Source: an uncultured Verrucomicrobiae bacterium
GTDB taxonomy: Bacteria; Verrucomicrobiota; Verrucomicrobiia; Chthoniobacterales; JAFAMB01
Direction: 5' to 3'
DNA length: 64,000 bases
Assembly (NCBI GenBank): GCA_963762565.1
Contig: CAVXLD010000001.1
Location: 1,120,001 to 1,184,000, forward strand
Made by a program: the position numbers and the translations under genes. Shown piece after piece: positions 1 to 46,504 of this stretch (position 1 is its first letter; every line of letters starts with the position of its first letter). The notes below the pieces were generated by a model. That model searched no databases, was not told the origin of the DNA, and saw nothing but the letters and a program-made list of their open reading frames with translations.

Positions 1-1
1 C

Positions 2-43: not shown

Positions 44-262
44 GTTGTTACTCAGCTCCACCACGGGATAGTACAAAACCGCTAGGTGGGTCGCTCTGAC
101 GGATACGATTTAACCACTTCGATACTTGTACTCGAGCGAGCTACCGTCGTACGCCACTGCTAAAATCTGCTCTCGCATTACGCAGCTGCTTTCATCGGGA
201 TCAAGTTCTTAGGTTTCGCGGGCCGGATCTTCCACCACAGCCTAGCTACGGAAGGCGAAGGA

Positions 263-577
263 CAAGACCGATTGGGGACAGGTCAACAAGACCGATTGGG
301 GACAGGTCAATAGTCGACAAAGGGAAACCAGAACGGGGACAGGTCAATATTAAATAGACTTGGCGCCGGATCGCCATGGCTAGGTATCGCACGCCGCTCG
401 CTACGCCGGCTGAAAGGGCCGTGCAGCTCGCGAACTTGGAATGCCAGGAGAGCGGGCACCTCGGATAGGGACAGGTCAACTGTTGACCGTCCTAAGGTTG
501 TCGCTAGAAGTCGAAAAATGGGGACAGGTCAATAGTCGCTAACGAGAACAAGACGAGGCAACACCTGACCTGTCCCT
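263..577. repeat. Cluster of GGGACAGGTCAA motifs (RAYT-associated inverted-repeat units)
   Basis: Forward copies at 274, 298, 335, 468, 520; reverse copy at 566; 24-bp tandem duplication 263-286/287-310. Confidence 0.9.
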
Positions 578-651
578 TACCGATTTCTGTCAGTTACATG
601 AAAAAAGAATTGGGATCTAACCAGTAGTTCTGTCAGTTAGAGAGTCGAAAA

Positions 652-2226: not shown

Positions 2227-2241
2227 ACTGAAACCGCCCCA

Positions 2242-3234
2242 ATGCGAATACTCCGTCGAGTGATATGGTGGCTCGCGTTCGTGATCCTCTGTTTCGTAAC
2301 CGCTTGGGCAACTGCAGCCATTTTCTTCGATCTTCCGGCACGTAACCTGAGTGTGCCAGCCGCCACTATTTACGTAGCCTTAGTAGTAGCTATTCTGTTC
2401 TTTCTGAGGTTCAGGTGGGTTTCGCTGGGGTTTTGTTTCGTTTTATTTGCCGGCGTTCTTTGTTGGTGGTGGTCAATCCAAGCGACTGGCAAACGCGACT
2501 GGCGGCCGGATGTTGCCGAAACCGCCTGGACAGAAAGAGACGGAGACAAGATCACCATTCACAACCTGCGAAACTTTGATTACGAGCCGGGGCAGCCGGC
2601 CAAGCCCCGGTGGGAGACTAAGGTCTTAGATCTTAGCCAACTGCAAGGAGTGGATCTTTTTATTAACTTTTGGGGATCGACTATGATCTGTCACCCGATA
2701 GTGAGCTTTCAATTCGGGCCGACCGATCACGTAGCCATTTCGGTTGAGACCAGGATGGCCCAAGGCCAGACCTATTCCATGATTCGCGGTTTCTTCAAAC
2801 AGTTCGAGCTGATCTACATTGTCGCCGATGAACGCGACGTGATTAGGGTCCGAACGAATTACCGGCACGAACAACTCTACCTTTATCGAACCAGCATTCG
2901 ACCAGAACGAGCCCGAAGCCTATTCCTCGATTACCTGAAGAGCGTTAATGCCATCCACGTGCGACCGCATTTCTACAACGCGGTAACAGATAACTGCACG
3001 ACTAATGTGCGAACGCATACCGCAGCCACAACGGTAAAACCTGCTCCCTGGGATTGGCGAATGTTGTTGAACGGAACCGTAGACGAATTGGTGTACGAAA
3101 ACGGAGGATTCGCCAGCCACCTCCCCTTTGCTGAGCTCAAACCGATGTCGCTCATCGACGCCAAGGCTCAAGCTGCGGACCAGGCTCCCGATTTTTCTGA
3201 GCGGATCCGAGTCGGTTTGCCAGGATTCGACTAG
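2242..3234 (+). CDS. DUF4105 / Lnb N-terminal-like membrane protein
   Basis: Three N-terminal TM helices; conserved-looking ICHPIVSF and YNAVTDNCTT. Confidence 0.75.
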   Translation: MRILRRVIWWLAFVILCFVTAWATAAIFFDLPARNLSVPAATIYVALVVAILFFLRFRWVSLGFCFVLFAGVLCWWWSIQATGKRDWRPDVAETAWTERDGDKITIHNLRNFDYEPGQPAKPRWETKVLDLSQLQGVDLFINFWGSTMICHPIVSFQFGPTDHVAISVETRMAQGQTYSMIRGFFKQFELIYIVADERDVIRVRTNYRHEQLYLYRTSIRPERARSLFLDYLKSVNAIHVRPHFYNAVTDNCTTNVRTHTAATTVKPAPWDWRMLLNGTVDELVYENGGFASHLPFAELKPMSLIDAKAQAADQAPDFSERIRVGLPGFD

Positions 3235-4976
3235 AAAGGGTTGGGAATAACCGAATGCGCTTTTTTTGAGGCGAGGCTTGAGCCCGAACGCTCGAGAGTC
3301 GCTAAATGCAGACGGAGAATTCGTTTCAATTCGGCAATGGTCTGAGGAAGAGCAAAGGAGCCGTGAGGGCCCGGAACGATCAATTCTGATTGGGCGCCCG
3401 CAAGATGCGAGCTCCAATAGGGAACCACACCGTCCGAACTGTTGGGGGTATCACCGCGACCCCGATCGCCAATGATCGAGTAGTACGGAACAACAATTGG
3501 AAGCTTATCAAGAGCGTGAAGAACAGGGTTTCGCGGAGAAAGACCGTTGATCCCGGTCGGTGGGTGTTTCAAGCCGATATTCTTTAAGACTGAACCGGTG
3601 ATTGCCTCGCCAACATGACTCACGATGGTCCTGGGAATACGAATGAGACCGACGCCGATCGAACCAATCCAGTTAGTCGCGAGATAACTGCCGCGGTGAG
3701 GTACACAGATGAAAACGATCCTTTCGACGTGCGGGGTGGGATCGAAGATCAGCGCTTTTTTGGCTAAATTATCCGGCGGCGTTGTCGCGTAGAGGCGATC
3801 CGCGTCATTCTGGAACACCGCGTTCCATAGAACCCGCTCGGTGCGCACCGCTTGCAGGTGGGCAAGTAATCCACCCATACTATGAGTGATGAGAACCATG
3901 CCCTTGCTGCGAGGATAGAGTTGATAAATGCGCTCTAAGCTTTCCCGAAGCCGGAGAGCGGACACCAGTATGGGGTCGCCCGTCGGATAAGCGAAAAGCC
4001 AGAACTGAAACCGGCCCCGCAACTCCGGATCGGACTGGATTGCGCTGATCGTCGGAACCCACATCTGGGGGATCGACAACAGGCCATGGATGAAAACGAC
4101 CGGGATCTGGTCAGGGTCATAGGGTTCGACCAGATAGAGTCCCGTTTGTTCCCGGTATCTTTCCGGGTCCATCATTGCTTGGAGACCCAAGAACGTCGGA
4201 TTTGGGTAATAAGTGTAGACGGCCGCGAAGTCAGCGCCCAAGGGTCTCTGCGTACCGGCGATCCGAATCGTTTCTTGTTTCGCCGGATCATAGAGGCTGA
4301 AGGTCGCGTCGCGCTTGTCCGACATAGCTTTAGCGACGCCCGAAACACCATCGCTCTTAGAACCGCCCTTGGGAAAGTCGACCGTGGCGGTCACCGGGAC
4401 CGCGAGGCCCAGGCGAGGTAGAAAGAATTGCCTGGGATCAGGCGGTTTATGGACTCCCACTAACAAACCGCCCCAACCACTGGTGCGTCCCGTTTCAACA
4501 GCGAGTTTCCTATGCAACTGTTGCGGGGTACGGAAAAAGTCGAAGTAGCTCGGGTCCCACGTGCCGGCCTCACGCGAACCGGCTGCGAATTCCAACCTGT
4601 AAGTGTGATCGCCCGATTGAATGGTCGTAGTCCGATTCCACAGCTGGTTACTAGACCGCAGTAAGACGGCCATTTCCTGGCAGGCCCGGTTGTAAGTTAG
4701 CCGGGCGTCTGTCGCCTCGTCGCCGGATGTACTGCTCACCAGGGGTAACGCGGTATAGGCTGCATCCAGGTAATGTCCTACGGCGGTCTTTGGATCAGCT
4801 TGTGTTCTGCGTGCTTCATCCAGACTTAGCTGGGCTCCCGAAACTGGCAGGTTGCGGTTCGACGTTTGCTGCGTGACACACCCGCTAGAGATTGCGAGGC
4901 AGCATATAAGCAAGAGAAATCGACTTAGCTGCCGACACGGGCTTCTACCATTCATCGACGTTAGTGCGCAGGCCAT
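3231..4976 (-). CDS. Alpha/beta hydrolase lipoprotein (esterase/lipase family)
   Basis: Lipobox-like SSGC, IHGL oxyanion motif, HSMGG nucleophile elbow, DGVV and late His. Confidence 0.8.
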   Translation of the reverse strand: MACALTSMNGRSPCRQLSRFLLLICCLAISSGCVTQQTSNRNLPVSGAQLSLDEARRTQADPKTAVGHYLDAAYTALPLVSSTSGDEATDARLTYNRACQEMAVLLRSSNQLWNRTTTIQSGDHTYRLEFAAGSREAGTWDPSYFDFFRTPQQLHRKLAVETGRTSGWGGLLVGVHKPPDPRQFFLPRLGLAVPVTATVDFPKGGSKSDGVSGVAKAMSDKRDATFSLYDPAKQETIRIAGTQRPLGADFAAVYTYYPNPTFLGLQAMMDPERYREQTGLYLVEPYDPDQIPVVFIHGLLSIPQMWVPTISAIQSDPELRGRFQFWLFAYPTGDPILVSALRLRESLERIYQLYPRSKGMVLITHSMGGLLAHLQAVRTERVLWNAVFQNDADRLYATTPPDNLAKKALIFDPTPHVERIVFICVPHRGSYLATNWIGSIGVGLIRIPRTIVSHVGEAITGSVLKNIGLKHPPTGINGLSPRNPVLHALDKLPIVVPYYSIIGDRGRGDTPNSSDGVVPYWSSHLAGAQSELIVPGPHGSFALPQTIAELKRILRLHLATLERSGSSLASKKAHSVIPNPF

Positions 4977-5202
4977 TGGTATGAGACGTGCTGGACGGAG
5001 CCGCTAGACCACGTTTAACCATAAGAAGCGACTCGTGCACGAACGCTGCCATCTTTAGTCAATCAGGGGAATTGGACCTTGGTCCAGTGTTTTCGTAAAC
5101 TTTGCTCAAGCTCGGCAAGAATCGAGCGCTGGATTTTGGTCCTATAGTGCGAGATTACCGTTTCGTTAATCTGTTTCCACGAAGGGCCAAGGTGTTGCTG
5201 GA

Positions 5203-5295
5203 TTGAGGGATGGAAAGCTCCGGAAGGGGAATTGGTTTCAGTTGCCAAAAATCATCCTCGAGGTAGAGTTCACCGGCGGAATCGAAGCCGTCCGA
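5203..5295 (+). pseudogene. Degenerate C-terminal remnant of an IS256-family transposase
   Basis: KLRKGNWFQLPKIILEVEFTGGIEAV resembles the QLPK.I.GV.F.DGIE tail of IS256 transposases. Confidence 0.35.
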
Positions 5296-5309
5296 CGAGA
5301 GGATTGGCT

Positions 5310-5981
5310 GTGCAGAAACTCATCGCAGGCATTGTCGATTTTCGAGAGCGGATGTTGCCGCAGTATGCACAACGCTTCAAAGAGCTCGCACTCCGCCAGA
5401 CGCCTGATGCCCTGTTTGTGACCTGTTCAGACAGCCGCGTGGTGCCGGACTTATTGGCCTCGACTCACCCGGGCGATCTTTTCACGATGCGGAACGTTGG
5501 CAATCTCATACCACCTGCGACCGCCGATGGGATTTCGATTGGTGACCTCTCCGAGGCAAGCGCGATCGAGTACTCGGTGCTTGTTCTGAGGGTTCCGAAT
5601 ATTGTCATTTGCGGACACTCCGAGTGTGGGGCGATGAAAGCCGTAATGGCGAACAACCCACGGCCCGAGACCCCAAACCTTATCAAGTGGCTTCACCACG
5701 CGCGCGCTGCGGCGGTCCGCCTAGAGCACGAAGGCGCGCTCGACGGGAAGTTGAAGCCGCACGATCAACTCTCACAGCTCAATGTGTTGGTGCAGCTCGA
5801 ACACCTTATGTCTTACGCGATCGTCCGCGACAAAGTATTAGCCGGAACCCTTCGATTGAGCGGGTGGTGGTTTAACGTCGCATCCGGGAGTATGTGCGCG
5901 TATGACCGCGCAAGTCATTCGTTCGAAGTTATCGACCGGCAGATGGCCGATCGCTTAATCGCGCACCTCATCACGCCTTGA
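5310..5981 (+). CDS. Beta-class carbonic anhydrase
   Basis: CSDSR and GHSECGA zinc ligands; GTG start at 5310 after a GAGAGGA RBS. Confidence 0.92.
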   Translation: MQKLIAGIVDFRERMLPQYAQRFKELALRQTPDALFVTCSDSRVVPDLLASTHPGDLFTMRNVGNLIPPATADGISIGDLSEASAIEYSVLVLRVPNIVICGHSECGAMKAVMANNPRPETPNLIKWLHHARAAAVRLEHEGALDGKLKPHDQLSQLNVLVQLEHLMSYAIVRDKVLAGTLRLSGWWFNVASGSMCAYDRASHSFEVIDRQMADRLIAHLITP

Positions 5982-6034
5982 AGTTTAAAATTCTTGCTGT
6001 GTCCCTGAAAGTTCTGAAAACAATGTCCTTGATA

Positions 6035-6101
6035 GGGACAGGTCAACTGTCGGCCGCCCAAGGATGTCGTTATGCAGCCGCACCACTATTGACCTGTCCC
6101 C
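6035..6101. repeat. Miniature inverted-repeat unit GGGACAGGTCAA...TTGACCTGTCCC
   Basis: Forward motif 6035, reverse motif 6089; spacer related to the 6857-6923 unit. Confidence 0.9.
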
Positions 6102-6278
6102 TCTTGACATTCTCGGCCCGGATGTCGGTTTTATCTGTTTCGAACCACCCGGACGAAGGGTTCGCCTAAAAAGGCGACGGAGGGTCGAGAAATAGGGGTC
6201 GCGTCTTACTGATAGGATCAATGTTGACGTCGTCCACATCGCCTCAGATCCATCCATCCTTTTAACTCCGAGTTTCCC

Positions 6279-6797
6279 ATGATCATCATTCCAAAACGTA
6301 TGACTGCCCGGATGCAGGAACCATTTTGTCTGTTCCTCATCGGTATGCGGATCAATCGACCGCTCAAAATTCAAAAATGGTTGCCGGTTTTCAGCGCGAT
6401 GCCTCGAATGATGCAGGAGTTGTATCGACACCCAGAGCTTGGCTTTATCAGCGGCCATTTTTGGTTCGGCCGAACCACGATCGCCGTTCAATACTGGAAA
6501 TCGTTCGAGGCGCTTACCCGCTATGCAAAACAGCCTGACCTAGCTCATTTGCCTGCCTGGGCGCAATTTCGTCGAAATATCGGCAACAGCGGCGACGTCG
6601 GCATCTGGCACGAAACCTATCTGATCGCGCCAGGCCAAAACGAGAACATCTATCACAACATGCCCACCTTCGGCCTCGGCCAAGCCAGCCAACTGGTCGA
6701 AGCGAGCGGGCGCCTGGAGTCTGCCGAAGGACGTGTGTCGCCAGAGACGGGGCATAGCCGGCCCGATCAGGAATCGCCACCGGTTAAGATCGACTAG
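6279..6797 (+). CDS. DUF4188 family protein
   Basis: FLIGMRIN, VQYWKSFE, H.PAW, VGIWHETY motifs. Confidence 0.85.
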   Translation: MIIIPKRMTARMQEPFCLFLIGMRINRPLKIQKWLPVFSAMPRMMQELYRHPELGFISGHFWFGRTTIAVQYWKSFEALTRYAKQPDLAHLPAWAQFRRNIGNSGDVGIWHETYLIAPGQNENIYHNMPTFGLGQASQLVEASGRLESAEGRVSPETGHSRPDQESPPVKID

Positions 6798-6856
6798 CGT
6801 CCGTCGCGCCCGATGTCCTTTTTGGCCCGTCCCCACCGCAGCGAACGGTTCTGCAT

Positions 6857-6923
6857 GGGGACAGGTCAACTGTTGTCCGTCCCAAAGTTGTCGTTGTGCA
6901 GCAGCCCACTGTTGACCTGTCCC
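6857..6923. repeat. Miniature inverted-repeat unit
   Basis: GGGGACAGGTCAA at 6857 and TTGACCTGTCCC at 6912. Confidence 0.9.
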
Positions 6924-7012
6924 TGATTGGATATTTGGCGTATGATGTAGGGACGAAAGGCCCCGATTCGCATGAGCGCCCTGGCTTCGCTGCTCGAATC
7001 TGCTCGGAAGAT

Positions 7013-7408
7013 ATGAAAACAATCCCCTTTGTTTTCCTGACGCTCTTTTTCATTTTAGCGTTCGACTCCAGGTCCAGCGCCGCTTCTGTCAGCGGCAAGG
7101 TGGTTGAAATTCATTATGGCGCCGGGACAGCGAACCCGGCCAATCAGGTAATCGTTACGCTCTACCGAATGAATACATACCTGGACCGTCCCGACGGCCC
7201 GAAATTAGGAAGTTTTATTACGAAGATCGATGGCCTCTTTCATTTCGAGCATATTCCGAAGGGCGAATACATGCTCCATGTTCAGGGCGCCAAGTCTTGG
7301 GGACCGGAACTGGGGCCGGAACTGGATCGACGCATATCGATTCTCAAAGACGACGAGGCAGTAGAACCTGAGACGATCGTCATAGACTACAAAGACAGTC
7401 CGCCCTGA
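7013..7408 (+). CDS. Secreted protein with carboxypeptidase-regulatory-like (prealbumin) fold
   Basis: Signal peptide MKTIPFVFLTLFFIL; DGLFHFEHIPKGEYMLHV pattern. Confidence 0.6.
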   Translation: MKTIPFVFLTLFFILAFDSRSSAASVSGKVVEIHYGAGTANPANQVIVTLYRMNTYLDRPDGPKLGSFITKIDGLFHFEHIPKGEYMLHVQGAKSWGPELGPELDRRISILKDDEAVEPETIVIDYKDSPP

Positions 7409-7693
7409 GTGAGAGGACCTAATAGATTCGTCTCCTTGCGTCTCTTCCACGCCGAAAAAAGCTCGCATTCTGTCTCAAAAGATATCTAAGGGAATTGAAG
7501 GAGGCTTTAGAAGTAAGGGACGTAGCTTGAGCATTGGACATTTGCCAAAGCAGTTCTCCGTGATTGAAACGTCCAAAGTTAAGATAGGTCGCTTCTATAG
7601 TTCGTCCCTTCTATAGTTCGCATGCGCGATTACCAATTGATATGTTTGTTGGTGGCCGGTTCTAACTACTCCCCCCGAAAGGAAAATTAAGAT

Positions 7694-7891
7694 ATGCCGT
7701 TGAATGAAACCCAAAGATCGCTTGCGATGGCTCAAATCGTCACCGGTCTTCTCTCCCGCAGCGGCGCACGTCGTCTGGATAACGAGACCTTAGCCCACGA
7801 AGCGCGTGAGCTTCTCGTCGCGATCGAGACCGAAGCCGCTCTTCCCAAGCAAAAAATAAGACGTCGTGACATCCCGCGTACCCGACTGTAA
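7694..7891 (+). CDS. Small hypothetical protein (65 aa)
   Basis: ATG preceded by GAAAGGA RBS; helical composition. Confidence 0.5.
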   Translation: MPLNETQRSLAMAQIVTGLLSRSGARRLDNETLAHEARELLVAIETEAALPKQKIRRRDIPRTRL

Positions 7892-7930
7892 CGATTCTCC
7901 ACAAAAAACGCTCTAGAAGGAGGCTAAATT

Positions 7931-8013
7931 GGGGACAGGTCAACAGTCGGCAAGAGTCTGTCGCTATCGACCGTATCATGCCGGCAACCGGCTCAATCAA
8001 TAATTGACCTGTC
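7931..8013. repeat. Miniature inverted-repeat unit
   Basis: GGGGACAGGTCAA at 7931, TTGACCTGTC at 8004; spacer related to the 38018-38097 unit. Confidence 0.85.
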
Positions 8014-8180
8014 ATTCTGCCGCTGGGGCATGCATAGTCGTGCGAGTGGCCGGAACGTAGGGCGCGTGATGAGGGGGGTACTTTTCCCTCGAAGCTGACC
8101 TGGAGAACAAGTCACCTGGGACTAAGGTCCAATAGCGCTACCAAGCCCGGCCGGCGATAACTGCTAGGAGCCCACAGCAA

Positions 8181-9149
8181 ATGAATCATGAAGGCAATTG
8201 GCTGCTCCCCAGTGGTGGCGGAGCGCAGCGGAATATCAGGCGGCGGGTCATCTCTCTTGCTATTTGGATCGCAGGTTGCACTCTGCTATTCAGTCCCTGC
8301 GCTCCGGTTCACGCCGGATGGCTAGAAGCGGACGTCGACTTCTCGAATTACGATGTGCCGTTATTCCAGCAGATCGTCAACCGCATCAAGGCCAAGGTTG
8401 CAGCCCGATTGGGAGAGGGCGTAAATACGCAGGACCGCTATTTTATTGTTCCGTTCGCTTTCCAAAAAAGGTGGAATAATCCGCAGTTTTCGCACTCGTT
8501 CATCTCCGTGATCCGCGTGCTCGGCGACGGCAAACAACCAAACCTCAGTCCGGGACTCCGGCGCGGGCGATTCAAGAACCGAGATTTTGAAGCATTTACC
8601 ATCAGCTGGGTGCCTCACGATTATGGTACTAATCCGGTGTGCGTTTTCGATGGCTTCGGCAGTCGGATTTTTCCAACCTGGAACAAATGTCCTATTGTCG
8701 TCGGGAGAGACTTCAGGCTGGCTGAGACACTGAAGGTCGCGCTGAATGACAAAAGTTCCGTCGGCATGTGGGGACCCTACGAGATCAGGAAAGAAGCGTT
8801 TGAGCTTGGCGTGAAGCGGATGCTTTTGCTCGACGGAGGAACTATCAAATATAAAGCCGATGACCGCCTTACTCGTAAGGATCAAGTCGCGATCAATTGT
8901 TTCCATGCGATGGCGAACTTGGAAGAACTTTATCCTAACGGCGGATTTCTAGGGTCGGGATTTAGGATGTGGGGAATCAATGGCACCGCCCGAGTTCTGA
9001 TCGAATACACCAAGGCGGTTCGTAACAGAGGCCTGCTGCTTGAGCCGGTCGATATCAAAAAAGATCTCTACGGATTTGTGTACGCCCCGGAGAGGAATAG
9101 CGGTGGCCTCTACGATCCTTTTCCGAACGCATCTGCGTACCACCAGTAG
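8181..9149 (+). CDS. Hypothetical exported protein
   Basis: 322-aa ORF, AGGAG RBS, signal peptide ending VHA. Confidence 0.65.
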   Translation: MNHEGNWLLPSGGGAQRNIRRRVISLAIWIAGCTLLFSPCAPVHAGWLEADVDFSNYDVPLFQQIVNRIKAKVAARLGEGVNTQDRYFIVPFAFQKRWNNPQFSHSFISVIRVLGDGKQPNLSPGLRRGRFKNRDFEAFTISWVPHDYGTNPVCVFDGFGSRIFPTWNKCPIVVGRDFRLAETLKVALNDKSSVGMWGPYEIRKEAFELGVKRMLLLDGGTIKYKADDRLTRKDQVAINCFHAMANLEELYPNGGFLGSGFRMWGINGTARVLIEYTKAVRNRGLLLEPVDIKKDLYGFVYAPERNSGGLYDPFPNASAYHQ

Positions 9150-9249
9150 GAATTCGTCCAATCGAAATGCGGCAAGTCTCAAAGACATCCGAGCCGCGGT
9201 TCGCAGCGAAGCGTGTGGCTGCGCTGCTACATTCTCTGATCGGGCGACG

Positions 9250-11919
9250 TCATTCACTTCTCTGCCTCGCAGCATCGGCGATATCACGAGCCACGAGCGC
9301 GGTCCAGCCGGTCTGGTGGCTTGCGCCTAGACCTCGACCGGTCTCGCCGTGGAAATATTCGTGAAAGAGGACAAGTTCGCGCCAATGCGGATCAGCTGCG
9401 AATCGGAGATCGTCTCCGTGACACGGGCGCCGTCCTGCGGCATCCGGCAGAAAAATACTCGCCAACCGCGCACCAAGTTCGTTCACGACTCCTTGAAGAT
9501 TCATCATACGACCCGAACCAGTAGGACATTCCACCTGCAACTTATCGCCGTAAAAATGGTGGTACCGCTCCAGTGCCTCGATCAGCAAATGGTTGACAGG
9601 AAACCAAATCGGTCCGCGCCAATTCGAGTTGCCGCCGAAGAGGTGAGTGCGGGATTCGCCGGGATCATAGTCGACGCGATGCTCTACGCCTTCCGCTATA
9701 AAGACGCACGGACTTTTCTCGTGGAACTTCGATAGGGACCGGATTCCATAAGGCGAGAGAAACTCACTCTCGTCGAGCATATAACTCAGCAGGCGCTGCA
9801 AACGCTCGCGCGCCGGAATCGCCAGTAGAAATCGTTGACTGTCGCCGTGCTCGTAAAAGCTGATATTGTGAGCAAGATCGGGACGGTGGTTTATGAACCA
9901 GGCCGCCCGTTTGTAGAAACCTGGAAGTTTCTTGATTGTTTCCCCCTCCAGGACTTCGGTCGCGATCAATGGCAACAGTCCGACCAGGGAGCGTGTCTTG
10001 AGTGGGATGGCGCTCTGATCGGTCCGCAGCTGGTCGTAGTAAAAGCCGTCCTCTTCGCTCCAAAGCCCGCTGCCGCCGAGTTGGTTCATCGCATCTGCGA
10101 TCTGGACGAAGTGCTCGAGAAACTTCGATGCCATGTCCTCATAGGCCCGATAAATACGCAGTCCTTCGCCAACCGCCAGCTCCAGCGCCATCGAAAGCAT
10201 TGTGGCGCAGTAAAACGCCATCCAGGCGGTGCCATCGGCCTGCCGGAGGACGGCTCCGTTTGGCAAGACCTGAGAGCGATCGAACACGCCGATGTTATCC
10301 AACCCAAGGAAGCCGCCCGAAAACAGGTTCTCACCGTTCGCATCCTTACGGTTCACCCACCATGTGAAATTGAGCAGCAGTTTCTGAAAGACGCTTTCGA
10401 GAAAGTCGCGGTCCCGTGCGCCCCGCTCGCCCGAGATTTTATAGACGCGCCAGGCGGCCCAGGCATGCACTGGTGGGTTCACGTCCCCAAAGGCAAACTC
10501 GTACGCCGGAATCTGGCCGTTCGGATGCATGTACCATTCCCGCAACAGTAGAATCAATTGCTCCTTGGCGAACTCTGGGTCGATATGAGCCAGCGGGATC
10601 ATGTGGAATCCAAGGTCCCATGCGGCGAACCATGGATACTCCCACTTGTCCGGCATCGAAATGATGTCGCGGCTATAAAAATGACTCCAAGCTTTGTTGC
10701 GGCCCTGCAGCCGACCGGTGGGCGGCGCCGGACCGGACGGATCGCCGCTAAGCCAATCCTGAACGATGTAGTGATAGAATTGTTTGCTCCAGAGCAGCCC
10801 TGCGGCGGCTTGGCGTACCACGCCCTGCTCGATACTGTTAAACTTTATCCTGTACAGAGAGCCGTAGTACTCATCAGCCTCACGCATGCGTTCGGCGAAC
10901 ACCGCGTCAGAGTCCGGAGCCTTCGTCGAAGCCTCCTGCTCATTGAAAAGCCGCAAGGAGATGGTTTGCGTGGAATAGGATGGGATGCGCAAAACATAGT
11001 GGAGAGCTGCCTTCGTGCCGGTCTTTGCTGGATTGACGGCGCCGTCCTTACCGTGAATAACGTAGTCGTGAAATGCGTCCTTAAAAAACGCGTGGTCGGG
11101 CCCGAGATTGTACAAGCGGCGCGTGTTCGTGTCATTCTCTGTAAAGAGCGCAAGCGGACGGGGAGAATCCGGGGTCGTCCCGCTATCGAGCAGATAATGG
11201 CCGAGCGATTCATGATGGAGCGAGAGACTGTCGGCGCCTGCCCACGTAATCCTCGGTTTAGTGGCACTGCGTTCATCGATCGCGCCCCATGACCAAGTGT
11301 TGCGAAACCAGACGGTCGGTAGCAGGTGAAGCGTCGCTGCCTCGGCGCCGCGATTGGCCGCAGTGAGGCGGATCAGGATGTCGTTAGGCCCGTTTTTTGC
11401 ATACTCGGCCGTGATATCGAAATAACGACTGTCGTCGAATACGCCGGTATCCAAAATCTCGAATTCAGGATCGTCTTTGCCCCGGCGTCGATTCTCCGCC
11501 ACCAGCTGCGCGTATGGGTACTCGGCCTGCGGATATTTATAAAGCGCCTTCATGTAGGAGTAAGTCGGCGTCGCGTCGAGATAGAAGTATTGCTCCTTCA
11601 CATCCTCTCCATGATTCCCTTCCGGACCCGTCAAGCCGAAGAGGCGCTCTTTCAGAATCGGATCCTTGCCATTCCACAACGCCAATGCGAAGCAAAGCCG
11701 GCATTGACGATCGGCGATGCCGAGCAGTCCGTCTTCCCCCCATCGGTAGGACCGGCTTCGAGCATGATCGTGCGGGAAGTAATCCCAACAACCGCCGTCT
11801 GGGGAGTAGTCTTCGCGCACCGTGGCCCACTGGCGCTCCGATAGATAAGGTCCCCAACGTTTCCAGTTTGCCTCACGCTGCGCATCGGCTGTAAGACGCG
11901 CCTTCTCGGCATTGCTCAT
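9250..11919 (-). CDS. GH63 / MGH1-like glycoside hydrolase (glucosidase)
   Basis: WGPYLSERQWATVREDYS, MPDKWEYPWFAAWD, GASHQTGWT; start taken at MSNAEK after GGGGAG. Confidence 0.9.
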   Translation of the reverse strand: MSNAEKARLTADAQREANWKRWGPYLSERQWATVREDYSPDGGCWDYFPHDHARSRSYRWGEDGLLGIADRQCRLCFALALWNGKDPILKERLFGLTGPEGNHGEDVKEQYFYLDATPTYSYMKALYKYPQAEYPYAQLVAENRRRGKDDPEFEILDTGVFDDSRYFDITAEYAKNGPNDILIRLTAANRGAEAATLHLLPTVWFRNTWSWGAIDERSATKPRITWAGADSLSLHHESLGHYLLDSGTTPDSPRPLALFTENDTNTRRLYNLGPDHAFFKDAFHDYVIHGKDGAVNPAKTGTKAALHYVLRIPSYSTQTISLRLFNEQEASTKAPDSDAVFAERMREADEYYGSLYRIKFNSIEQGVVRQAAAGLLWSKQFYHYIVQDWLSGDPSGPAPPTGRLQGRNKAWSHFYSRDIISMPDKWEYPWFAAWDLGFHMIPLAHIDPEFAKEQLILLLREWYMHPNGQIPAYEFAFGDVNPPVHAWAAWRVYKISGERGARDRDFLESVFQKLLLNFTWWVNRKDANGENLFSGGFLGLDNIGVFDRSQVLPNGAVLRQADGTAWMAFYCATMLSMALELAVGEGLRIYRAYEDMASKFLEHFVQIADAMNQLGGSGLWSEEDGFYYDQLRTDQSAIPLKTRSLVGLLPLIATEVLEGETIKKLPGFYKRAAWFINHRPDLAHNISFYEHGDSQRFLLAIPARERLQRLLSYMLDESEFLSPYGIRSLSKFHEKSPCVFIAEGVEHRVDYDPGESRTHLFGGNSNWRGPIWFPVNHLLIEALERYHHFYGDKLQVECPTGSGRMMNLQGVVNELGARLASIFLPDAAGRRPCHGDDLRFAADPHWRELVLFHEYFHGETGRGLGASHQTGWTALVARDIADAARQRSE

Positions 11920-11977
11920 GCCGGTGTCAAACTCCCCTTCACCGCGAGTGCCCATCATGTAACGCGTGCGATACTGG

Positions 11978-13174
11978 TCACGCCGTTGTCGAGAAACCGC
12001 CTCGTCTTCCAACTTGCCCAGCGGCGGCACCGTTACCAACACCAGCACTCCGCTGCCCCAAGATCTGCTGACCATGCGCTTCGGCCCGCGCGAACACGAC
12101 TTTGTACACCTGGCAATAAGGATCCTTGGCTAACAGCGTTCCCTTCGCGCTGTAAGTTCGCACAGGACATCCGCCGTGGCAGATCGATAGGTAGCGGCAG
12201 GCCAGGCAGTCTTCATGCTCCATTAGATGCTTCGGCCGCTCCACGAAATCCTGCCGCGCTCGACTGGTTTTTAGCATCCGCGTAAGGTCGGGTTCGCGGA
12301 ACATATTACCAAAGAAGTATTCGGGATAGCTGGTAACCCAGCAATCGCACTGAGCAACCGTCCCTCTGGCGTCCACTGAGATAAATTGATTGGAGCAGTT
12401 CTCTTTCCAGATACAGGGTAAACGTGCCGGTCGGCCGACGAAGTGATCAATCAAGGCATCGAACGGACCCAGCGATACACCAGCGTCGTAGCCTTTCTGT
12501 ATCCAGATATCAAAGAGCTCACCGAGAAACCGGGCCAGTTCACCATTATCGAGTTGAAAGCCGCCTTCGACATCTTTCGCCGGGCCACCGGCAAACGGGG
12601 TATTCACCTGGAAATCATCGAGACCAAGGTCCTCGGTGAAGTACCGATAGAACCTCTCCGCGCCGGCTTCCAGACTGGCTTTATGGAGTACGGCAATGAC
12701 CCCGATCTTGATGCCTGCTTCGCGTGCTTCGTGCAGCCTTTTAGTCCAAAGTTTAGTGTAAGCTTCCGCACCGCTCTTGATAAGCTTCCGATGGACATTG
12801 GGATAGTCCATCGACGTTCCGACGGATCCGTTAAACATCCCATGGATTACCCTATTCCACGATGGTGAATAGCTAATAAGATTCGTTTGTAGATAGTGAA
12901 CGAATTTGCGTCCTTTCTCCGCGGCAGCGCGTCCCATAAGATTTCCAGCGTCTGCAAACCAGTCGGGACCCATAATCATCGCTTCTCCGCCCTGCCAATA
13001 GATCTCGCAAACTTCGATATTCTCATGTTCGAGATGGTCAAGCAGTCGCCGAGTTAACAACGGGAGCAACGCCGGTGAAAGTCGATGCGGTTCCTTGTGC
13101 TCAAAGCAGTAATCGCAGGCGACGTTGCACTCTGACGTCGGTAGGAGGATCACGCTGAAGACTCGTCCGTTCAT
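11978..13174 (-). CDS. Radical SAM/SPASM peptide maturase
   Basis: CNVACDYC (CxxxCxxC), WQGGE, SPASM cysteines C..C..C / CLACRYLSICHGGCP / DPYC. Confidence 0.92.
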   Translation of the reverse strand: MNGRVFSVILLPTSECNVACDYCFEHKEPHRLSPALLPLLTRRLLDHLEHENIEVCEIYWQGGEAMIMGPDWFADAGNLMGRAAAEKGRKFVHYLQTNLISYSPSWNRVIHGMFNGSVGTSMDYPNVHRKLIKSGAEAYTKLWTKRLHEAREAGIKIGVIAVLHKASLEAGAERFYRYFTEDLGLDDFQVNTPFAGGPAKDVEGGFQLDNGELARFLGELFDIWIQKGYDAGVSLGPFDALIDHFVGRPARLPCIWKENCSNQFISVDARGTVAQCDCWVTSYPEYFFGNMFREPDLTRMLKTSRARQDFVERPKHLMEHEDCLACRYLSICHGGCPVRTYSAKGTLLAKDPYCQVYKVVFARAEAHGQQILGQRSAGVGNGAAAGQVGRRGGFSTTA

Positions 13175-13189
13175 CAGTAGGGACTCCGG

Positions 13190-14104
13190 TTATTCTACGG
13201 GCGACGCCAGGGGTCCAACCTTCGCCAGCTCCTCTGTTTGATCAGCACGATCTCGGTTGGCAAGCTCGTGACCCATCTCATCGGCAGCAGCCTTTATGGC
13301 GAAGAACAACTGTTTGACTCCTCCGCAATCGTAAGCGGGATCCGGCCACTTGAAGTATCCTTGGCAGATCTCTTGGAAAGGACAAGTCACACACTCGGCG
13401 TCTTGCTCCAGTAGGCGTCTAAACCAAGCCTCCACAAAAGTCGTGGACGAGAGATCCGATGACGGAGAACTGAAGCCGCCGGGTAATTCAAAGCCGACGC
13501 CCACTCCTCGACGCAGAAATAAAGCTGGGTCTTCTTCAAGAATCATCCAGAGCGAACCGTCGCCGGTGCCGCACATGGCAGCCAACACCGAATGGAAGAA
13601 CTCTACCGGCGCTTCCACCATCGGATCACGAAGGTAGAAGGTTACCGCCTCGGTCAATTCAATTAGTACTTCAGGAGATGGTTGCCCCGGCAGTAATCGC
13701 ACCGGCAGTCGCAATGCGATAGCCACCTTGACGGCTCTAAGAAACCCGGGCGAGGCAGGCATACTCACCCTGACGTCACGGACGGCAAAGACGTCGACCA
13801 GTCGATACAAATCGGAAAACTGCGAACCGGGATCCGTAATGAGGACATCCAGAGGAACATTCGATGTGCTTTGCGCCGCCGGGATCCAAGCATCCTGATC
13901 GCTGAGCAACTCCTCTACTTGGATCCATTGTAAGCTAGCCGGGGCATTACTAAGCCATTGGCTAAGTTCAGCCCGGCTCCTGACGATGGCGACAAATGGG
14001 CTCCCACCGTGGCCGGACGCTAAATCGGACCGCAAGAAAAGAATGGGCCAATCGGGTTCTAGCGGCGCGCTATTGTACCCATCATTTACCAGCGGTTGAT
14101 CCAT
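13190..14104 (-). CDS. Hypothetical protein with C-terminal SPASM-like Cys cluster but no radical SAM motif
   Basis: CVTCPFQEICQG...YDC near C-terminus; no CxxxCxxC; overlaps the precursor stop. Confidence 0.7.
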   Translation of the reverse strand: MDQPLVNDGYNSAPLEPDWPILFLRSDLASGHGGSPFVAIVRSRAELSQWLSNAPASLQWIQVEELLSDQDAWIPAAQSTSNVPLDVLITDPGSQFSDLYRLVDVFAVRDVRVSMPASPGFLRAVKVAIALRLPVRLLPGQPSPEVLIELTEAVTFYLRDPMVEAPVEFFHSVLAAMCGTGDGSLWMILEEDPALFLRRGVGVGFELPGGFSSPSSDLSSTTFVEAWFRRLLEQDAECVTCPFQEICQGYFKWPDPAYDCGGVKQLFFAIKAAADEMGHELANRDRADQTEELAKVGPLASPVE

Positions 14105-14433: not shown

Positions 14434-14436
14434 TTG

Positions 14437-26733: not shown

Positions 26734-26879
26734 GGGACGGTCAACCGTCCGGTCCCAGCGCAAAGAGGCATCCTCCATCACCAGCTGTAAGCCTGCCTCG
26801 AGAGACTACGGACCCGCCCCACACCCCCTCTTTCTGAAAGCACCTCGGCTAGGTTCCGCAAAATAGCTGACCTGTCCCT
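26734..26879. repeat. Inverted-repeat unit (variant left end)
   Basis: GGGACGGTCAA at 26734, TGACCTGTCCCT at 26868; right flank nearly identical to 39200-39234. Confidence 0.75.
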
Positions 26880-29926: not shown

Positions 29927-30100
29927 CGGCTTCCTCTAGCTGATGCGGTGAACTATTTGGCTTCCTCTGATTGACGTCAATTCTAATGCTCGGGCGGGCA
30001 GGTGGGAACCTCTGATAGGGACAGGTCAACTGTCCGGTACCGTGAGAAGGTCCTTTCTCGAGAGGTCACGTCTAAATAAAAGACGTGACCCATGGTCCTT

Positions 30101-37890: not shown

Positions 37891-38136
37891 GAAAACGGAA
37901 GTGGGAAAAACGGAAGTGCGAAAACGGAAGTGGGGACAGGTCAATAGTCAGCAAAAAGTCTAGCTGTCCAGCACCACCGCGACTTGCTCAACGAACGAAA
38001 ACGGCGAAAACGGAAGTGGGGACAGGTCAATAGTCAGCAAAAAGTCTAGCTGTCCAGCACCACCGCGACTTGCTCAACGAATAACTGACCTGTCCCTAAG
38101 CCGACTGACCTCTTCGGAAATAGCTGACCTGTCCCT
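37891..38136. repeat. GGGACAGGTCAA cluster with a 78-bp duplication
   Basis: Forward 37932, 38018; reverse 38086, 38125; 37918-37995 repeated at 38004-38081; short AAAACGGAAGTG repeats. Confidence 0.9.
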
Positions 38137-39056: not shown

Positions 39057-39222
39057 CGGTCGTGAATTGGGGACAGGTCAACGGTCGTGAATTGGGGACA
39101 GGTCAATAGTCTGCAAGGACAGAGATCTGAGTAGGGACAGGTCAACTGTGTTGGTTGCCGCGTAAGCCATTACGCGTGAGCACGTGCCGTCAATTGGTTC
39201 GCAAAATGGCTGACCCGTCCCC
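39057..39222. repeat. GGGACAGGTCAA cluster
   Basis: Forward 39069, 39094, 39134; variant reverse 39211; 25-bp tandem duplication 39057-39081/39082-39106. Confidence 0.9.
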
Positions 39223-39604
39223 TTTCTTCTCTGCAAAACACATTTAAACAATACGCGCTCTCACTCGAGTCCGGACGTCCGTAAAATCCGTTCGCTAATT
39301 AATTACCGGCCACGCCGGGCGCCGGCCTAATGACTCACCTATCGCCGGCGCTTCCGAGATCCGCGAGAGCCTTTTGCGATGGCCCGAAATGCCAAGATTG
39401 ACGCAAGTAACGCCACCACGATCAGGGCACACAACAAGAGTGCCGATGACGCTTGGTCTCCGAGCATCTGCGCGAAGTTTGATTCCATAGAGTGACACTC
39501 AGTAAAGCGGTTTTCCAGGGACCGTAAGAAAGGGACAGGTCAACTGTGCCCGTTATCGTGCAGGCAAGTACAGTAGGGTGCCTGTCGCAATAGAGGCTGA
39601 ATTA

Positions 39605-40916
39605 GGGACAGGTCAATAATCATGACTAACCGCAAAGGAAACCAAACAAGGTGCGGATCAATAGAAGATAACAGGCAGCGCTTTTGCCGGGGACCCTTCG
39701 GAAAGCTTTAAAACGGGGGAAAGCGTTCGAGGCCGTGCCCGCGGACGTGGCTCGACCTGCGCGAAGGCTAAAATGCTAGGCTAGCTGACCGGCCGGAGAC
39801 GGAGATTGCGGAGCACCCAGATCTGGTCATCGGCTATGACGGGCAGCCGGTAGCCACGACCGGATTGGGTAGGAGCGACGATTTGTCTGCAACGGGCGAA
39901 TTGTTCTTGCACAAATCCCCGGCTACCGAGGATTCCGCCATCGGTAAAATAGCGTATGCGGCAGCGCAGAAGGTCCGCCAGTGGGATCTCGCCTTGCTGC
40001 TGCTGGAGTACTTTCTGGGCAAGGTCCCCTTCAATGGTCGCACCCACTTTGGAAGCAGCCGTTCCGGTTCGAAAAAGCAGCTTGCGATATTCCCGGCGCG
40101 CATCCTTCCAATTGCTCTCTGTGCCTAGGCCTAATGTCTCCTGAATCCCCAGTTTGGCGTGGGCCGAGTCCTTAGCGATCGCCTCGGCGTAGCCACAATA
40201 GCGGTAGTCTTTCGGATCTTCGCATAGCCCAGCCCTAAGCGGATTTAAATCGATATAGGCAGCTACCGCACTTAAAGCTTGGCCCTCCTCGATTAATACA
40301 CTCTTAAAGCGCTCCGCCCACAGAACCCCGTATCGGTGATGGCGTCGATTGTACCACTGTGCAAAGCGGCCCTTGAGCTCCTTCATGTAAATCGATACGT
40401 CAAAGAGCCTGCTCAAGTGATGCTCCCTGAGCTGTTGCGCCTGATCGCTCAAGCTTGCTTCTTTGGCGTAGGCGGCTAGTTGCTGAGCCACTTGAGTGCG
40501 CCGCTCTGGCCCGTAGCCAAGCTCGATACAATCCAGCAACTCCTGGTCGGAAAGTGTTCGTCGTTCCGGCACCTTGCACAAGATATGAAAATGGTTGGCC
40601 ATCAAAGCATAGGTTAGCACTTGCACGCAGCAGGCCTCCTCCAGCCGCCGCATCAGGTGAACGAAGTGCTCGGCTTCAATCGAACCAGGGCTTTGGGTCC
40701 GAAACAGAAATCGCCCATCGACCACTCGTGACATGCAGTGGTAGAAGGTCTGTCCTTGTCCTTTGATTCGTGGCTGTCGCATTGGTGCTCAGCCCACATT
40801 CATAACACAAATCATTGCTGTATCAATATTTTCTCTTTGATAACCGAGTGGGCGACCCCCGGGGTAGCCCTCATATCCTTCGGTCCGCCCCCCGTCTTGA
40901 ATAATTGACCTGTCCC
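39605..40916 (-). mobile_element. Y1 (RAYT-like) transposase element bounded by inverted GGGACAGGTCAA ends
   Basis: GGGACAGGTCAATAAT at 39605 (another copy at 39532) and ATAATTGACCTGTCCC at 40901 flank the transposase. Confidence 0.75.
39781..40782 (-). CDS. HUH/Y1 REP-associated tyrosine transposase (RAYT-like)
   Basis: YHCMSR, MANHFHIL (HUH), YNRRH..G.LW.ERFKS, YIDLNPLRAG, DYRYCGY; long C-terminal extension. Confidence 0.92.
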   Translation of the reverse strand: MRQPRIKGQGQTFYHCMSRVVDGRFLFRTQSPGSIEAEHFVHLMRRLEEACCVQVLTYALMANHFHILCKVPERRTLSDQELLDCIELGYGPERRTQVAQQLAAYAKEASLSDQAQQLREHHLSRLFDVSIYMKELKGRFAQWYNRRHHRYGVLWAERFKSVLIEEGQALSAVAAYIDLNPLRAGLCEDPKDYRYCGYAEAIAKDSAHAKLGIQETLGLGTESNWKDARREYRKLLFRTGTAASKVGATIEGDLAQKVLQQQQGEIPLADLLRCRIRYFTDGGILGSRGFVQEQFARCRQIVAPTQSGRGYRLPVIADDQIWVLRNLRLRPVS

Positions 40917-44665: not shown

Positions 44666-44983
44666 ATGATCTTCTACCATAGGACGAACGCTGCAAAAAC
44701 CATCTTGCGCTACGGATTTAGAGACGCAGAACGATTTCGCGGTTTCGAAAGCCCAGTTCTCCGGGGAGTCTTCATTTCTGACGTTCCGCTCGCGTGCATG
44801 GAAGAAGAAAAAGGGAGCCAAGTTCTGAAAATCACGCTCCCTGACGATTTTGACATCTCCGATTACGAATTGATCGAGAAGAGCAAACATTACCGAGAGT
44901 GGTGCATACCGTCGGAACTGATTAACCTACTCGGCCAGGTCGAACTCCCGGAAGGAGAAGCTGAATTGGGGACAGGTCAATAA
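44666..44983 (+). CDS. Small protein, possible ADP-ribosyltransferase-like fold
   Basis: FYHRT..I...GF, GVFISD, EWCIP; last codons ELGTGQ* encoded by the repeat. Confidence 0.55.
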   Translation: MIFYHRTNAAKTILRYGFRDAERFRGFESPVLRGVFISDVPLACMEEEKGSQVLKITLPDDFDISDYELIEKSKHYREWCIPSELINLLGQVELPEGEAELGTGQ

Positions 44984-45076
44984 TCGCCAACTGTCTGGCT
45001 ACCGGTCGTATTTCCAATGAAACAATTGACCTGTCCCTCGCCCTGGATTCAATTGACCTGTCCCTCGCCCTGGATT
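44968..45076. repeat. Inverted-repeat unit with a 27-bp tandem duplication
   Basis: Forward 44968; reverse 45026, 45053; duplication 45023-45049/45050-45076. Confidence 0.9.
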
Positions 45077-45514: not shown

Positions 45515-46504
45515 ATGGATACCAGAACTGGCGTGACTCGGCGAGAGTTCCTGCGGAGTTCTTTGATCACTGCGGCGGGTCTGGCGACGGGCGTCTCCGG
45601 CGCTACCCTCTCTTCACCGCCGACTTTATCGGAATCACTGCGCCTCGTCTTCGCTACTGATACCCATCTGATGCAGAACAATGGCTTACGTTCGGCAGAA
45701 GGACTGGCTGCAGCGGTAGAGGCAATCAAAGAGTTGCGACCACGACCAGATCTGATCGTTTGCGGCGGCGATCTCACTCATCCCTGGCCAAACCTCGATT
45801 ATCCCGCCGCGAACAAACTGCTGGATCGTTTCCTTGGCATTTGGGCACCGCTGCATTCGATCGAGACCCATTACGTTTTCGGAAATCACGACTTCGTTGG
45901 CACGCTGAACCCGCGTGTTTCTCGACACGATCCGCGCTTCGGTAAGGGGCTGTTTGAGAAGCGCCTCGATCTCCCCAGGCTGTATTACTCATTCGAAAAA
46001 CGAGGCTGGCGTTTCATAATCCTCGACGATGTCTGGCCGAATCTGGACGGCAGCTACTACGGACAGTACAAGGCGGACCAGCTCGACTTCGTCCAAAGCG
46101 AATTAAAAGCCCACAAGGAAAAACCAACCGTCATCGCCAGCCATATCCCAGCGGTTTCCAATTTCGGGACATTGCTCGGATTCGCCAGATCTATTCAGAC
46201 CAATTTCAAGCATCGGCCTTCGCTGATTTCGAGAAACGGCAAGACGCTAGTCAATATCATTCGCCAGTCCGGAGCTAACGTAAAGCTGGTGCTTGCCGGG
46301 CATCTTCACCATCAAGAGAGGATGGAGGCCGATGGCGTTAGCTACCTCAACGGGGGCGCGATTTGTGGTAACTGGTGGAAAGGATCGATGATGGGCTGTC
46401 CGGAAGGATTCAATGTGATCGATCTGCACCCAGATGGTTCATTCGCGATCGCTTATAAGACGTTTGGTTGGGCTTGGGACAGGTCAACTGTTTCGGTTCA
46501 CTGA
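45515..46504 (+). CDS. Tat-exported metallophosphoesterase
   Basis: TRREFL signal; DTH, GGD, GNHD, GHLH. Confidence 0.9.
   Translation: MDTRTGVTRREFLRSSLITAAGLATGVSGATLSSPPTLSESLRLVFATDTHLMQNNGLRSAEGLAAAVEAIKELRPRPDLIVCGGDLTHPWPNLDYPAANKLLDRFLGIWAPLHSIETHYVFGNHDFVGTLNPRVSRHDPRFGKGLFEKRLDLPRLYYSFEKRGWRFIILDDVWPNLDGSYYGQYKADQLDFVQSELKAHKEKPTVIASHIPAVSNFGTLLGFARSIQTNFKHRPSLISRNGKTLVNIIRQSGANVKLVLAGHLHHQERMEADGVSYLNGGAICGNWWKGSMMGCPEGFNVIDLHPDGSFAIAYKTFGWAWDRSTVSVH

Follow-up and report, generated by a model that had tools for sequence, protein, structure and literature searches.

Genes for Y1 (HUH/tyrosine) transposases that lie between long terminal inverted repeats (TIRs) have been named TIRtrons, and the enzymes that they encode TIRYTs (Di Nocera, De Gregorio & Rocco 2013, PMC3733652). 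In the portion of that account drawn on here, many, not all, TIRtrons carry the motif GGGGWSAS, and their repeats form moderately abundant TIR families whose members occur as singles, dimers and groups. In the classification of the TnpA-Y1 proteins by Quentin et al. (2018, PMC6006769), as laid out in the part of the paper at hand, TIRYTs correspond approximately to subclass 2.1, and subclass 2.3 consists of proteins with a median length of 325 amino acids (aa), an insertion of ~55 aa between beta3 and alphaC, the motifs NHYH and YVDLNP and a long two-part C-terminal tail, which occur in several copies per genome in Chromatiales and Alteromonadales and for which no flanking repeats are reported there; the IS200/IS605 elements are characterized in the same source by a short TnpA with a Y---Q motif, by subterminal hairpins and by having no TIRs. 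Here we describe a TIRtron, together with a family of gene-less copies of its ends, in a stretch of 64,000 nucleotides ("the window", C1:1120001-1184000) from the 6.12-Mb draft genome (15 contigs, 93.7% complete) of an uncultured Verrucomicrobiae bacterium. An earlier note on this DNA had drawn attention to three short inverted-repeat units that alternate with co-oriented genes in the first 10 kb of the window, had compared them with the attC arrays of integrons and had suggested a Y1 enzyme as the candidate recombinase. A Y1 HUH transposase gene is indeed present at 39605-40916, 32 kb from the units, flanked by the same repeat arms that make up the units. We consider the three units to be non-autonomous dimers of the TIRs of this Y1 TIRtron, moved on single-stranded DNA (ssDNA) by the enzyme of the intact copy, and would give this reading a probability of roughly three in four. 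The repeats belong to the known, little-studied TIRtron/TIRYT kind and are not a new integron-like cassette system.

The locus resembles the described TIRtrons in having a RAYT-like Y1 gene, with HUH and catalytic tyrosine motifs, between TIRs that are not of the GTAG type, in the start of its arms, which fits GGGGWSAS (GGGGACAG in 29 of the 56 arms found in the genome and AGGGACAG in 24), and in the moderate number of repeats that are found elsewhere than at the gene, whether single, as dimers or in groups. It differs from them in its long-form protein of 333 aa, which has an insertion of ~55 residues after the HUH strand and a C-terminal extension, in its host, a soil member of the Verrucomicrobiota, and in the strong clustering of the arms around the element. 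In length, in the place of the insertion (helices 79-123) and in its Y motif (YIDLNP, the HUH motif being NHFH) the protein looks similar to subclass 2.3, and its gene is present in several copies in relatives; flanking repeats are not reported for that subclass in the cited part of PMC6006769. The TIRtron arrangement is a sister of REP/RAYT systems and of REPINs, in which, according to the portions of PMC3116915, PMC3337134 and PMC5581495 drawn on here, two inverted short repeats and a spacer form a hairpin that is copied as a unit. Common to both is that the repeats also stand on either side of the cognate Y1 gene, and the fold of the present protein is closest to that of E. coli TnpA-REP (4ER8). 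The present repeats differ from those of REPIN/RAYT systems in that their foot lacks a GT[AG]G tetranucleotide (the arm profile has T and R at -2 and -1, then GGG), in that a single arm is not palindromic (no consistent self-pairing was found within single arms, whose positions 13-16 vary as Y-W-R-T), and in that tens of clustered copies (56 arms) are found rather than hundreds of dispersed ones; the gene is multi-copy and insertion-sequence-like in some relatives, not single-copy and vertically inherited. An HUH/Y1 catalytic core and an expected ssDNA mechanism without target-site duplication are common to this element and to the IS200/IS605 elements (IS608, ISDra2), from which it differs in its TIRs, its Y---NP motif and its 333-aa protein. 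Miniature inverted-repeat transposable elements (MITEs) and mobile insertion cassettes are transposase-less pairs of DDE element ends that sometimes enclose passenger genes; the units are likewise transposase-less pairs of ends, but they have no target duplication, and no DDE partner with these ends is present. Integron attC sites span lengths that include those of the units (67-83 bp), and their boxes follow the consensus RYYYAAC/GTTRRRY, in which AAC...GTT is invariant. As in arrays of attC sites, with or without an integrase, short imperfect inverted repeats of similar length are found here between short co-oriented open reading frames (ORFs), and folded ssDNA is their likely substrate; unlike such arrays, the locus has no IntI and no conserved AAC/GTT core, its repeats form the ends of a Y1 element and are often solo or in irregular groups. 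The window is a compact test case, with an intact Y1 gene of the long form, both of its ends, two families of gene-less dimers, solo arms and strain-level rearrangements together in 64 kb; as it stands, it holds an ordinary, well-explained repeat family.

The arms and the Y1 element

A position profile of the 56 arms gives an arm of ~18 nt, T(-2) R(-1) GGGACAGGTCAA Y W R T. The census on which it is built took exact and one-mismatch matches to the 16-mer GGGACAGGTCAAYWRT (30 and 23, respectively, genome-wide, as compared to 0 and 1 for the reversed control) and three two-mismatch partner arms. These arms are distributed over 29 sites, of which 13 hold a solo arm, 7 a clean dimer and 9 an irregular group, and 13 of the sites (29 arms) fall in the window, where 0.3 would be expected under an even spread. 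With up to one mismatch allowed, 32 occurrences of the core GGACAGGTCAA are counted in the window, where 0.96 would be expected, and none of 100 shuffles reaches 32. Eight further sites lie within 17 kb of contig C12, beside two decayed remnants of the element, and the remaining ones are on C1 (11 kb upstream of the window), C3, C5, C7, C8 and C10. The sites are intergenic, with four exceptions inside short ORFs that are unlikely to be real genes.

Three inverted arm pairs are found where the earlier note had placed its units, at 6035-6100, 6858-6923 and 7932-8015 (Table 1), with terminal arm stems of ~12-14 bp that are perfect or nearly perfect and with 34-52 nt of spacer between the inverted arms. 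Units 1 and 2 do carry the common spacer string that was quoted in that note, with small insertions and deletions, and unit 3 represents a second spacer type; unit 2 has in addition a semi-conserved outer flank of ~8 nt on either side, and the right arm of unit 3 (8000-8015) differs from the 16-mer at two positions. When the units are folded as ssDNA, a check that the note had proposed, hairpins are obtained for all three on both strands (-15.3 to -20 kcal/mol; z of -2.7 to -4.8 against shuffles). The dimers recur whole. A full-length copy of unit 3, 89% identical, is present at C7:115234-115317, and in alignments that include the spacer, type A dimers recur on C12, on C5 and in the relative G005, and type B dimers on C7, at 38019 in the window and in the relative G002. 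Because homologous spacers are found at separate loci and in these two sister species, the dimer, i.e., two inverted repeats with their spacer, has been copied as a whole unit. A target-site duplication was seen at none of 10 dimers of this genome, whose flanks are complementary no further than 2 nt.

The identity of the arms as element ends comes from a comparison with 40 related genomes, of which 16 contain homologs of the Y1 gene at E<=1e-20; the matches number 9 in G016 and 5 in G034, and G019, G023 and G040 have 4-6. Eight gene copies of G016, aligned with their flanks, share a block of ~1.41 kb, and in four of them (L063, L064, L067 and L068) the limits of the block are arms, the left one being GGGAC[A/G]GGTCAA, from which L068 departs at one position, and the right one CTGACCTGTCCC; in L065 an arm is found on the left side alone, and the other three have variant arms outside the block. 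Solo right ends also adjoin complete copies of the element in G016. G032, which belongs to a different genus and has a good assembly, shows the succession of arm, 333-aa gene and inverted arm over ~1.28 kb, with two dimers 1.2 kb apart and several solo arms within ~15 kb of the element. Since arms bound the Y1 gene in both G016 and G032, they are its terminal inverted repeats, and the units are gene-less pairs of such ends. Arms and gene also co-occur among the relatives: a homolog at the same threshold is found in six of the seven genomes with at least nine arms (G002, G005, G016, G032, G034 and, as fragments only, G038) and in 10 of the 33 with eight arms or fewer, the latter ten presumably carrying other arm variants. 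Arm counts thus follow the presence of the gene, and the kinship of these genomes, which are not independent in such counts, makes this only indicative. In G017 and G009, whose Y1 homologs are 63% identical, no convincing inverted repeats were found around the gene.

The genome has one intact copy of the Y1 gene, and on C12 an 80%-identical fragment and a second small remnant of it. The 333-aa product matches the Pfam family Y1_Tnp (E 1.5e-7) and the NCBIfam family REP_Tyr_transpos (E 4.2e-16), and it has the motifs NHFH at residues 63-66 and YIDLNP at residues 176-181, in which H64, H66, Y176, N180 and P181 are invariant in 27 aligned sequences, down to 52% identity. A word-indexed search returned 4121 protein relatives at E<=1e-5, some of them from Verrucomicrobiota/Chthoniobacterales metagenome-assembled genomes (MAGs), and those with names are called "putative transposase" or "REP element-mobilizing transposase RayT". 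The AlphaFold model, with a mean pLDDT of 74.8 and a poor C-terminal third, contains the Y1 core, three extra helices (79-123) inserted between the HUH strand (64-71) and the helix 129-147, and a C-terminal extension. The fold so predicted resembles that of TnpA-REP: the top Foldseek match in the Protein Data Bank (PDB) is 4er8_A, the E. coli TnpA-REP on its REP hairpin (probability 1.00, E 2.6e-3), and VIA-align to the same structure gives a Z of 15.3 and a root-mean-square deviation of 2.7 over 156 of 165 residues, as compared to Z values of 9-11 for the transposases of IS608, ISDra2 and IS200 (11.2 for IS608 TnpA). A sequence search of the PDB with the Y1 protein gave no match at E<=1, the relatives there having been found by the fold search only.

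The arms extend beyond the Verrucomicrobiota. An exact dimer-pattern scan of named genome records yielded 30 loci, five in Verrucomicrobiota and 25 in Firmicutes and Bacteroidales, eight of them in Hespellia stercorisuis. The 25 loci are mostly near-perfect palindromes of 55-80 bp from the gut, with identical 12-nt arms, and in 17 of them the 4-11 nt outside the arms are mutually complementary and copy-specific, a feature shown by none of the five Verrucomicrobiota loci and none of the 10 dimers of this genome; it is as if the gut palindromes had been inserted into the centres of existing palindromes, or had come about by fold-back copying of a solo arm and its flank. A 265-aa Y1 gene lies beside arms in a Bacteroidaceae MAG (L098, on both sides) and in a Firmicutes MAG (L096, on one side), so that the arm core is common to Y1 elements across three phyla. 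The Y1 genes with the same 12-nt core in Firmicutes and Bacteroidales are only 24-31% identical to the present one over the aligned part, and conservation of the core beside genes so diverged would, as judged from the sequences, point to a very conserved protein-DNA recognition.

Proposed movement of the dimers and rival explanations

TnpA-REP and the TnpA of IS608 bind a hairpin on ssDNA and cut and rejoin the strand near its foot. By analogy with these enzymes, the two arms of a dimer would pair into a hairpin on ssDNA, such as the lagging-strand template or repair intermediates, and the Y1 enzyme would bind the arm hairpin and cut and rejoin one strand near the foot by way of a phosphotyrosine link. 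Dimers and solo arms would thereby be copied or moved without target-site duplication. New copies would be placed for the most part in the vicinity of the element and beside arms already present, which fits the arm groups, the solo right ends beside the G016 copies and the tandem duplications of flank and arm, and local landing of this kind would lead to dense clusters in a plastic, accessory part of the chromosome. Three insertions of this type, into adjacent spaces between genes, would then make up the apparent array, with unrelated residents or independently portable modules as the genes that they separate, and the arms may also serve as breakpoints of rearrangements. Tandem duplications of an outer flank and an arm, with periods of 17-86 nt, occur at arm/element boundaries both here and in G016 (Table 1), and may be the footprint of cutting and rejoining, or of slippage at the foot of the hairpin.

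A number of observations weigh against this account of the units. The match to REP_Tyr_transpos reaches 59 bits where the cut-off of the model is 80, the E-value of the Foldseek match to TnpA-REP exceeds 0.001, and the two arms of the intact element itself begin with AGGGACAG, which agrees with GGGGWSAS at 7 of 8 positions. The spacers of the dimers are unlike the subterminal DNA of the intact element, so that the dimers are not its recent deletion derivatives, and covariation in the spacers of type A dimers was seen at 1 of 23 pairs, in only four sequences. One relative, G008 (95% complete), has 12 variant arms and no homolog that could be found with this query. The copy number of the repeats is low and clustered, unlike that of classical REPIN populations. 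A search for filled and empty sites with the C7 copy and its flanks met no syntenic relative, and no filled/empty pair was obtained for any unit, the relatives being too diverged. No biochemical test of any TIRYT is reported in the parts of PMC3733652 and PMC6006769 cited here, so that catalysis, substrate and cut site are all assigned to the present enzyme by analogy.

The proposal closest to that of the earlier note would be a dedicated cassette system, in which the dimers are sites where the Y1 enzyme excises, inserts or inverts gene-sized modules, as an ssDNA HUH analogue of attC x attC exchange. We regard it as improbable. The four ORFs between and after the units are co-oriented on the + strand, as that note had stated, and a second array of three dimers, ~1 kb apart and again between short co-oriented ORFs, lies at C12 546329-548356, both arrays being in islands with the Y1 gene or its remnants. 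Strain variation also provides some encouragement for the cassette proposal. Over units 1-3, the reference is matched by contigs of two further samples from what is probably the source study. Differences were seen in X5, which comes from an independent soil study and has contig pieces ~95-98% identical to the window. There, one contig joins 7425 to 8000, the first base of the right arm of unit 3, and thus skips 574 nt made up of the 65-aa ORF and the left arm and spacer of that unit. A second contig carries 6849-7096 as its reverse complement, which takes in unit 2 and the first part of the gene for a secreted protein, followed by 125 unaligned bases, 7620-7911, five bases and another left arm. 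The overlap between the two contigs is 30 bases, and they probably adjoin each other, a layout that puts the 65-aa ORF segment beyond unit 2 in that strain, inverted and opposite in orientation to the secreted-protein gene. Modules are reordered there at unit edges, a thin observation of one contig each from a single run, and the breakpoints of the moved and inverted ORF module are 6849, an outer edge of unit 2, and 8000, exactly at the inner edge of an arm; any type of repeat, however, attracts rearrangement breakpoints. Several extra-letter joints and loose ends in the strain mapping reflect cross-mapping from family copies (e.g., the 39095-39149 group) and are not rearrangements, and stretches without contig cover in X5 and X6 provide no evidence of absence.

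The histories of the enclosed genes bear on the same question. The ~0.5-kb module with the 131-aa secreted-protein gene was recovered at 23 metagenome loci (L122-L144) with 91-97% DNA identity and in at least four upstream and at least five downstream contexts. It is preceded elsewhere by a T-rich stretch of 14-20 nt that is replaced in the window by unit 2 and 8 nt, and its breakpoint here, 6931/6932, is therefore flush with the outer edge of unit 2, as the cassette proposal would have it. Arms are near the module at only one of the 23 loci, however, and a Y1 fragment is directly upstream at one other, as in G002, where a 92%-identical copy adjoins a fragment of the Y1 gene; at the remaining 21, neither arms nor a Y1 fragment were found within the available DNA, many of the contigs being short. 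The module abuts a truncated Y1 gene in L137 and L037, and in L136 and L138 the apparent 3' part of a tRNA gene. The first enclosed gene belongs to PF13826 (Monooxy_af470-like), which we take to be the former DUF4188, and in G017 and G009 its orthologs, 69% identical, are unaccompanied by units and lie ~12 kb away from the Y1 homolog; it looks like an old neighbour of the element and not a traveller. None of 42 other genomes of the family yielded the segment 7426-7930. The protein of the 322-aa gene has an N-terminal hydrophobic stretch and no Pfam or NCBIfam match, and its gene family is multi-copy in most of the relatives searched, with 73-86% DNA identity across genera: paralogs of 85, 80 and 73% are present in the same genome (at C5:280770-281701, C7:301967-302935 and C3:141008-141854, listed here without pairing), and 86% identity is seen in G012 and G014, which represent two other genera. 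The conserved DNA upstream of this gene ends at 8111, short of unit 3. No genome was found with the gene order of the window, either in a DNA search with 5232-12075 in 30 relatives or in one with 1-20000 in five genomes of the same genus, with which synteny is limited to small blocks at ~2.2-5.0 kb and 12.1-14.9 kb. As far as their sequences tell, the genes between the units have separate histories and would not be cassettes of a dedicated system. No module was found between dimers in two different genomes, and 13 of the 29 sites are solo arms and 9 irregular groups. With units that are TIR dimers of a Y1 element whose arms also occur solo and in groups, and with enclosed genes of unrelated histories, the dedicated cassette array of the earlier note is not upheld. 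If the arms did direct module shuffling, this would be a second, unrelated route to integron-like cassette dynamics, and we consider it unlikely that the enzyme acts as a single-strand HUH counterpart of integron shuffling, relocating or inverting dimer-bounded modules by cuts at arm edges in islands where a Y1 gene is present.

It is likewise doubtful that the arms are immobile relics, i.e., the decayed remains of old copies of the element, patterned by host recombination, hairpin slippage and the shuffling of the island. One could point to a single intact gene copy next to two decayed ones, to the junction duplications of 23-86 nt (arm and flank), which resemble slippage, to an island full of broken genes and with a probably active DDE insertion sequence, and to the failure to see filled and empty sites. 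Relics would not account, however, for dimers with homologous spacers at unlinked loci (C7, C12 and C5) and in G002 and G005, where the unit itself has been copied, nor for an intact gene whose catalytic residues are invariant in homologs as diverged as those described above and which is multi-copy in G016, G034, G023 and G040.

Two further explanations can be given very little weight. The units have the size and the terminal inverted repeats of MITEs, and the window offers a candidate for moving them, a probably active DDE insertion sequence (17786-19406) of which there are identical copies elsewhere, but the ends of this insertion sequence are unrelated to the arms, target-site duplications are lacking at all 10 dimers, and the arms are the ends of a Y1 element. 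Their position in intergenic gaps, mostly just 3' of genes, would suit immobile regulatory or transcript-end elements, such as operators, terminators or RNA stabilisers; against this, the window has no Rfam match at gathering thresholds, a promoter and terminator scan of 5900-8300 gave nothing beyond chance (no promoter-like site, and four terminator-like sites as compared to 2.5 +/- 1.6 in shuffles, with the unit hairpins not among them), and a transposase element has this very sequence at its ends. The units might have a secondary effect on neighbouring transcripts.

That the units are attC sites of an integron without integrase (a CALIN-type array) has next to no chance of being right: their length of 67-83 bp is within the attC range and the GGTCAAC...GTTGACC of unit 2 is one mismatch from each consensus box, so that the earlier note's denial of such ends needs to be softened for this unit, but AAC/GTT is not kept in units 1 and 3 or in the family (the 3' box of both units reads ATTGACC where attC has its invariant GTT, and position 13 is C in only 24 of the 56 arms), the arms flank a Y1 gene, and, in keeping with that note's statement that there is no IntI, no integron integrase was found in the 93.7%-complete genome, where the best TIGR02249 score is 78 bits against a cut-off of 265, the level of Xer recombinases and one also reached in all 14 control genomes.

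Other features of the window

In Table 1, we have listed the units, the intact element, the other arm sites and the genes around the units.

Table 1. Arms, units, element and adjoining genes; positions are those of the window unless a contig or locus is named.
Feature	Position	Strand	Remarks
Unit 1	6033..6101		TIR dimer, spacer type A; arms 6035-6050(+), 6085-6100(-)
Unit 2	6849..6931		TIR dimer, spacer type A; arms 6858-6873(+), 6908-6923(-)
Unit 3	7931..8015		TIR dimer, spacer type B; arms 7932-7947(+), 8000-8015(-)
Intact TIRtron	39605..40916	gene -	333-aa Y1 (HUH/tyrosine) transposase gene 39781-40782(-); arms 39605-39620(+), 40901-40916(-)
Six-arm group	275..576	+++++-	includes 24-nt junction duplication
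Four-arm group	37933..38135	++--	86-nt duplication of arm and flank
Two arm groups	39070..39620	+++ and ++	adjoin Y1 gene
Dimer and one extra arm	44969..45064	+--	
Solo arm	26863..26878	-	1 mismatch
Solo arm	30018..30033	+	
Solo arm	46476..46491	+	
Flank and arm duplications	275/299, 39070/39095, 45022/45049, 37933/38019; C12 546381/546404; C8 93468/93518; left ends of L064 and L065 in G016		
PF13826 (Monooxy_af470-like) gene, 172 aa	6279..6797	+	E 1.4e-41; resident gene, outside the element
Portable ~0.5-kb module	6932..7451	+	131-aa secreted-protein gene 7013-7408; signal-peptide-like N-terminus
Strain-specific segment	7426..7930	+	65-aa ORF 7694-7891
322-aa gene	8181..9149	+	multi-copy family; outside the element

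Some minor observations concern the arms and the islands in which they lie. Where two divergent genes meet, at 24315-24340, an arm with two mismatches precedes sequence like that of the right end of the intact element (…AATGATCATGGCTAAC, as compared to …AATAATCATGACTAAC), possibly the solo end of a lost copy. The intact element is adjoined by a gene for a 521-aa TPR protein (40996-42561), and directly upstream of the second dimer array is a gene for a protein of 956 aa (C12:543351-546221) that combines trypsin-like protease, STAND NTPase and TPR domains. That the C12 island might be a segmental duplicate of the window was considered and rejected, only the dimer and two remnants of the Y1 element being matched. 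The DDE insertion sequence at 17786-19406 (DDE_Tnp_1_6/DUF772, with a 489-aa transposase) has copies that are 99.9% identical and is probably active; its further copies are at C1:1112280-1113900, 6 kb upstream of the window and with partial copies beside it, and at C8:90454-91785.

The window is otherwise rich in gene debris, with several broken or partial genes. Two adjacent ORFs at 31060-32525 correspond to consecutive parts of AcrB (profile positions 479-609 and 694-1020) and appear to be a broken RND pump gene, a UDP-glucose dehydrogenase fragment at 16043-17080 is without its N-terminal domain, a multicopper oxidase domain stands on its own at 47789-48313, and a 92-aa piece of NAD_binding_9 is found at 59387-59665. 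An Xre-family antitoxin and a RES-domain toxin form a pair at 60965-61701. The genome also contains ~15 copies of another dispersed repeat, YTATTTATGGGACAGGACACTAGT (e.g., at C1:226796, C1:395398, C3:23669 and C12:275310), which has GGGACAGG in common with the arms and a conserved flank of its own, and which may be the end of another element.

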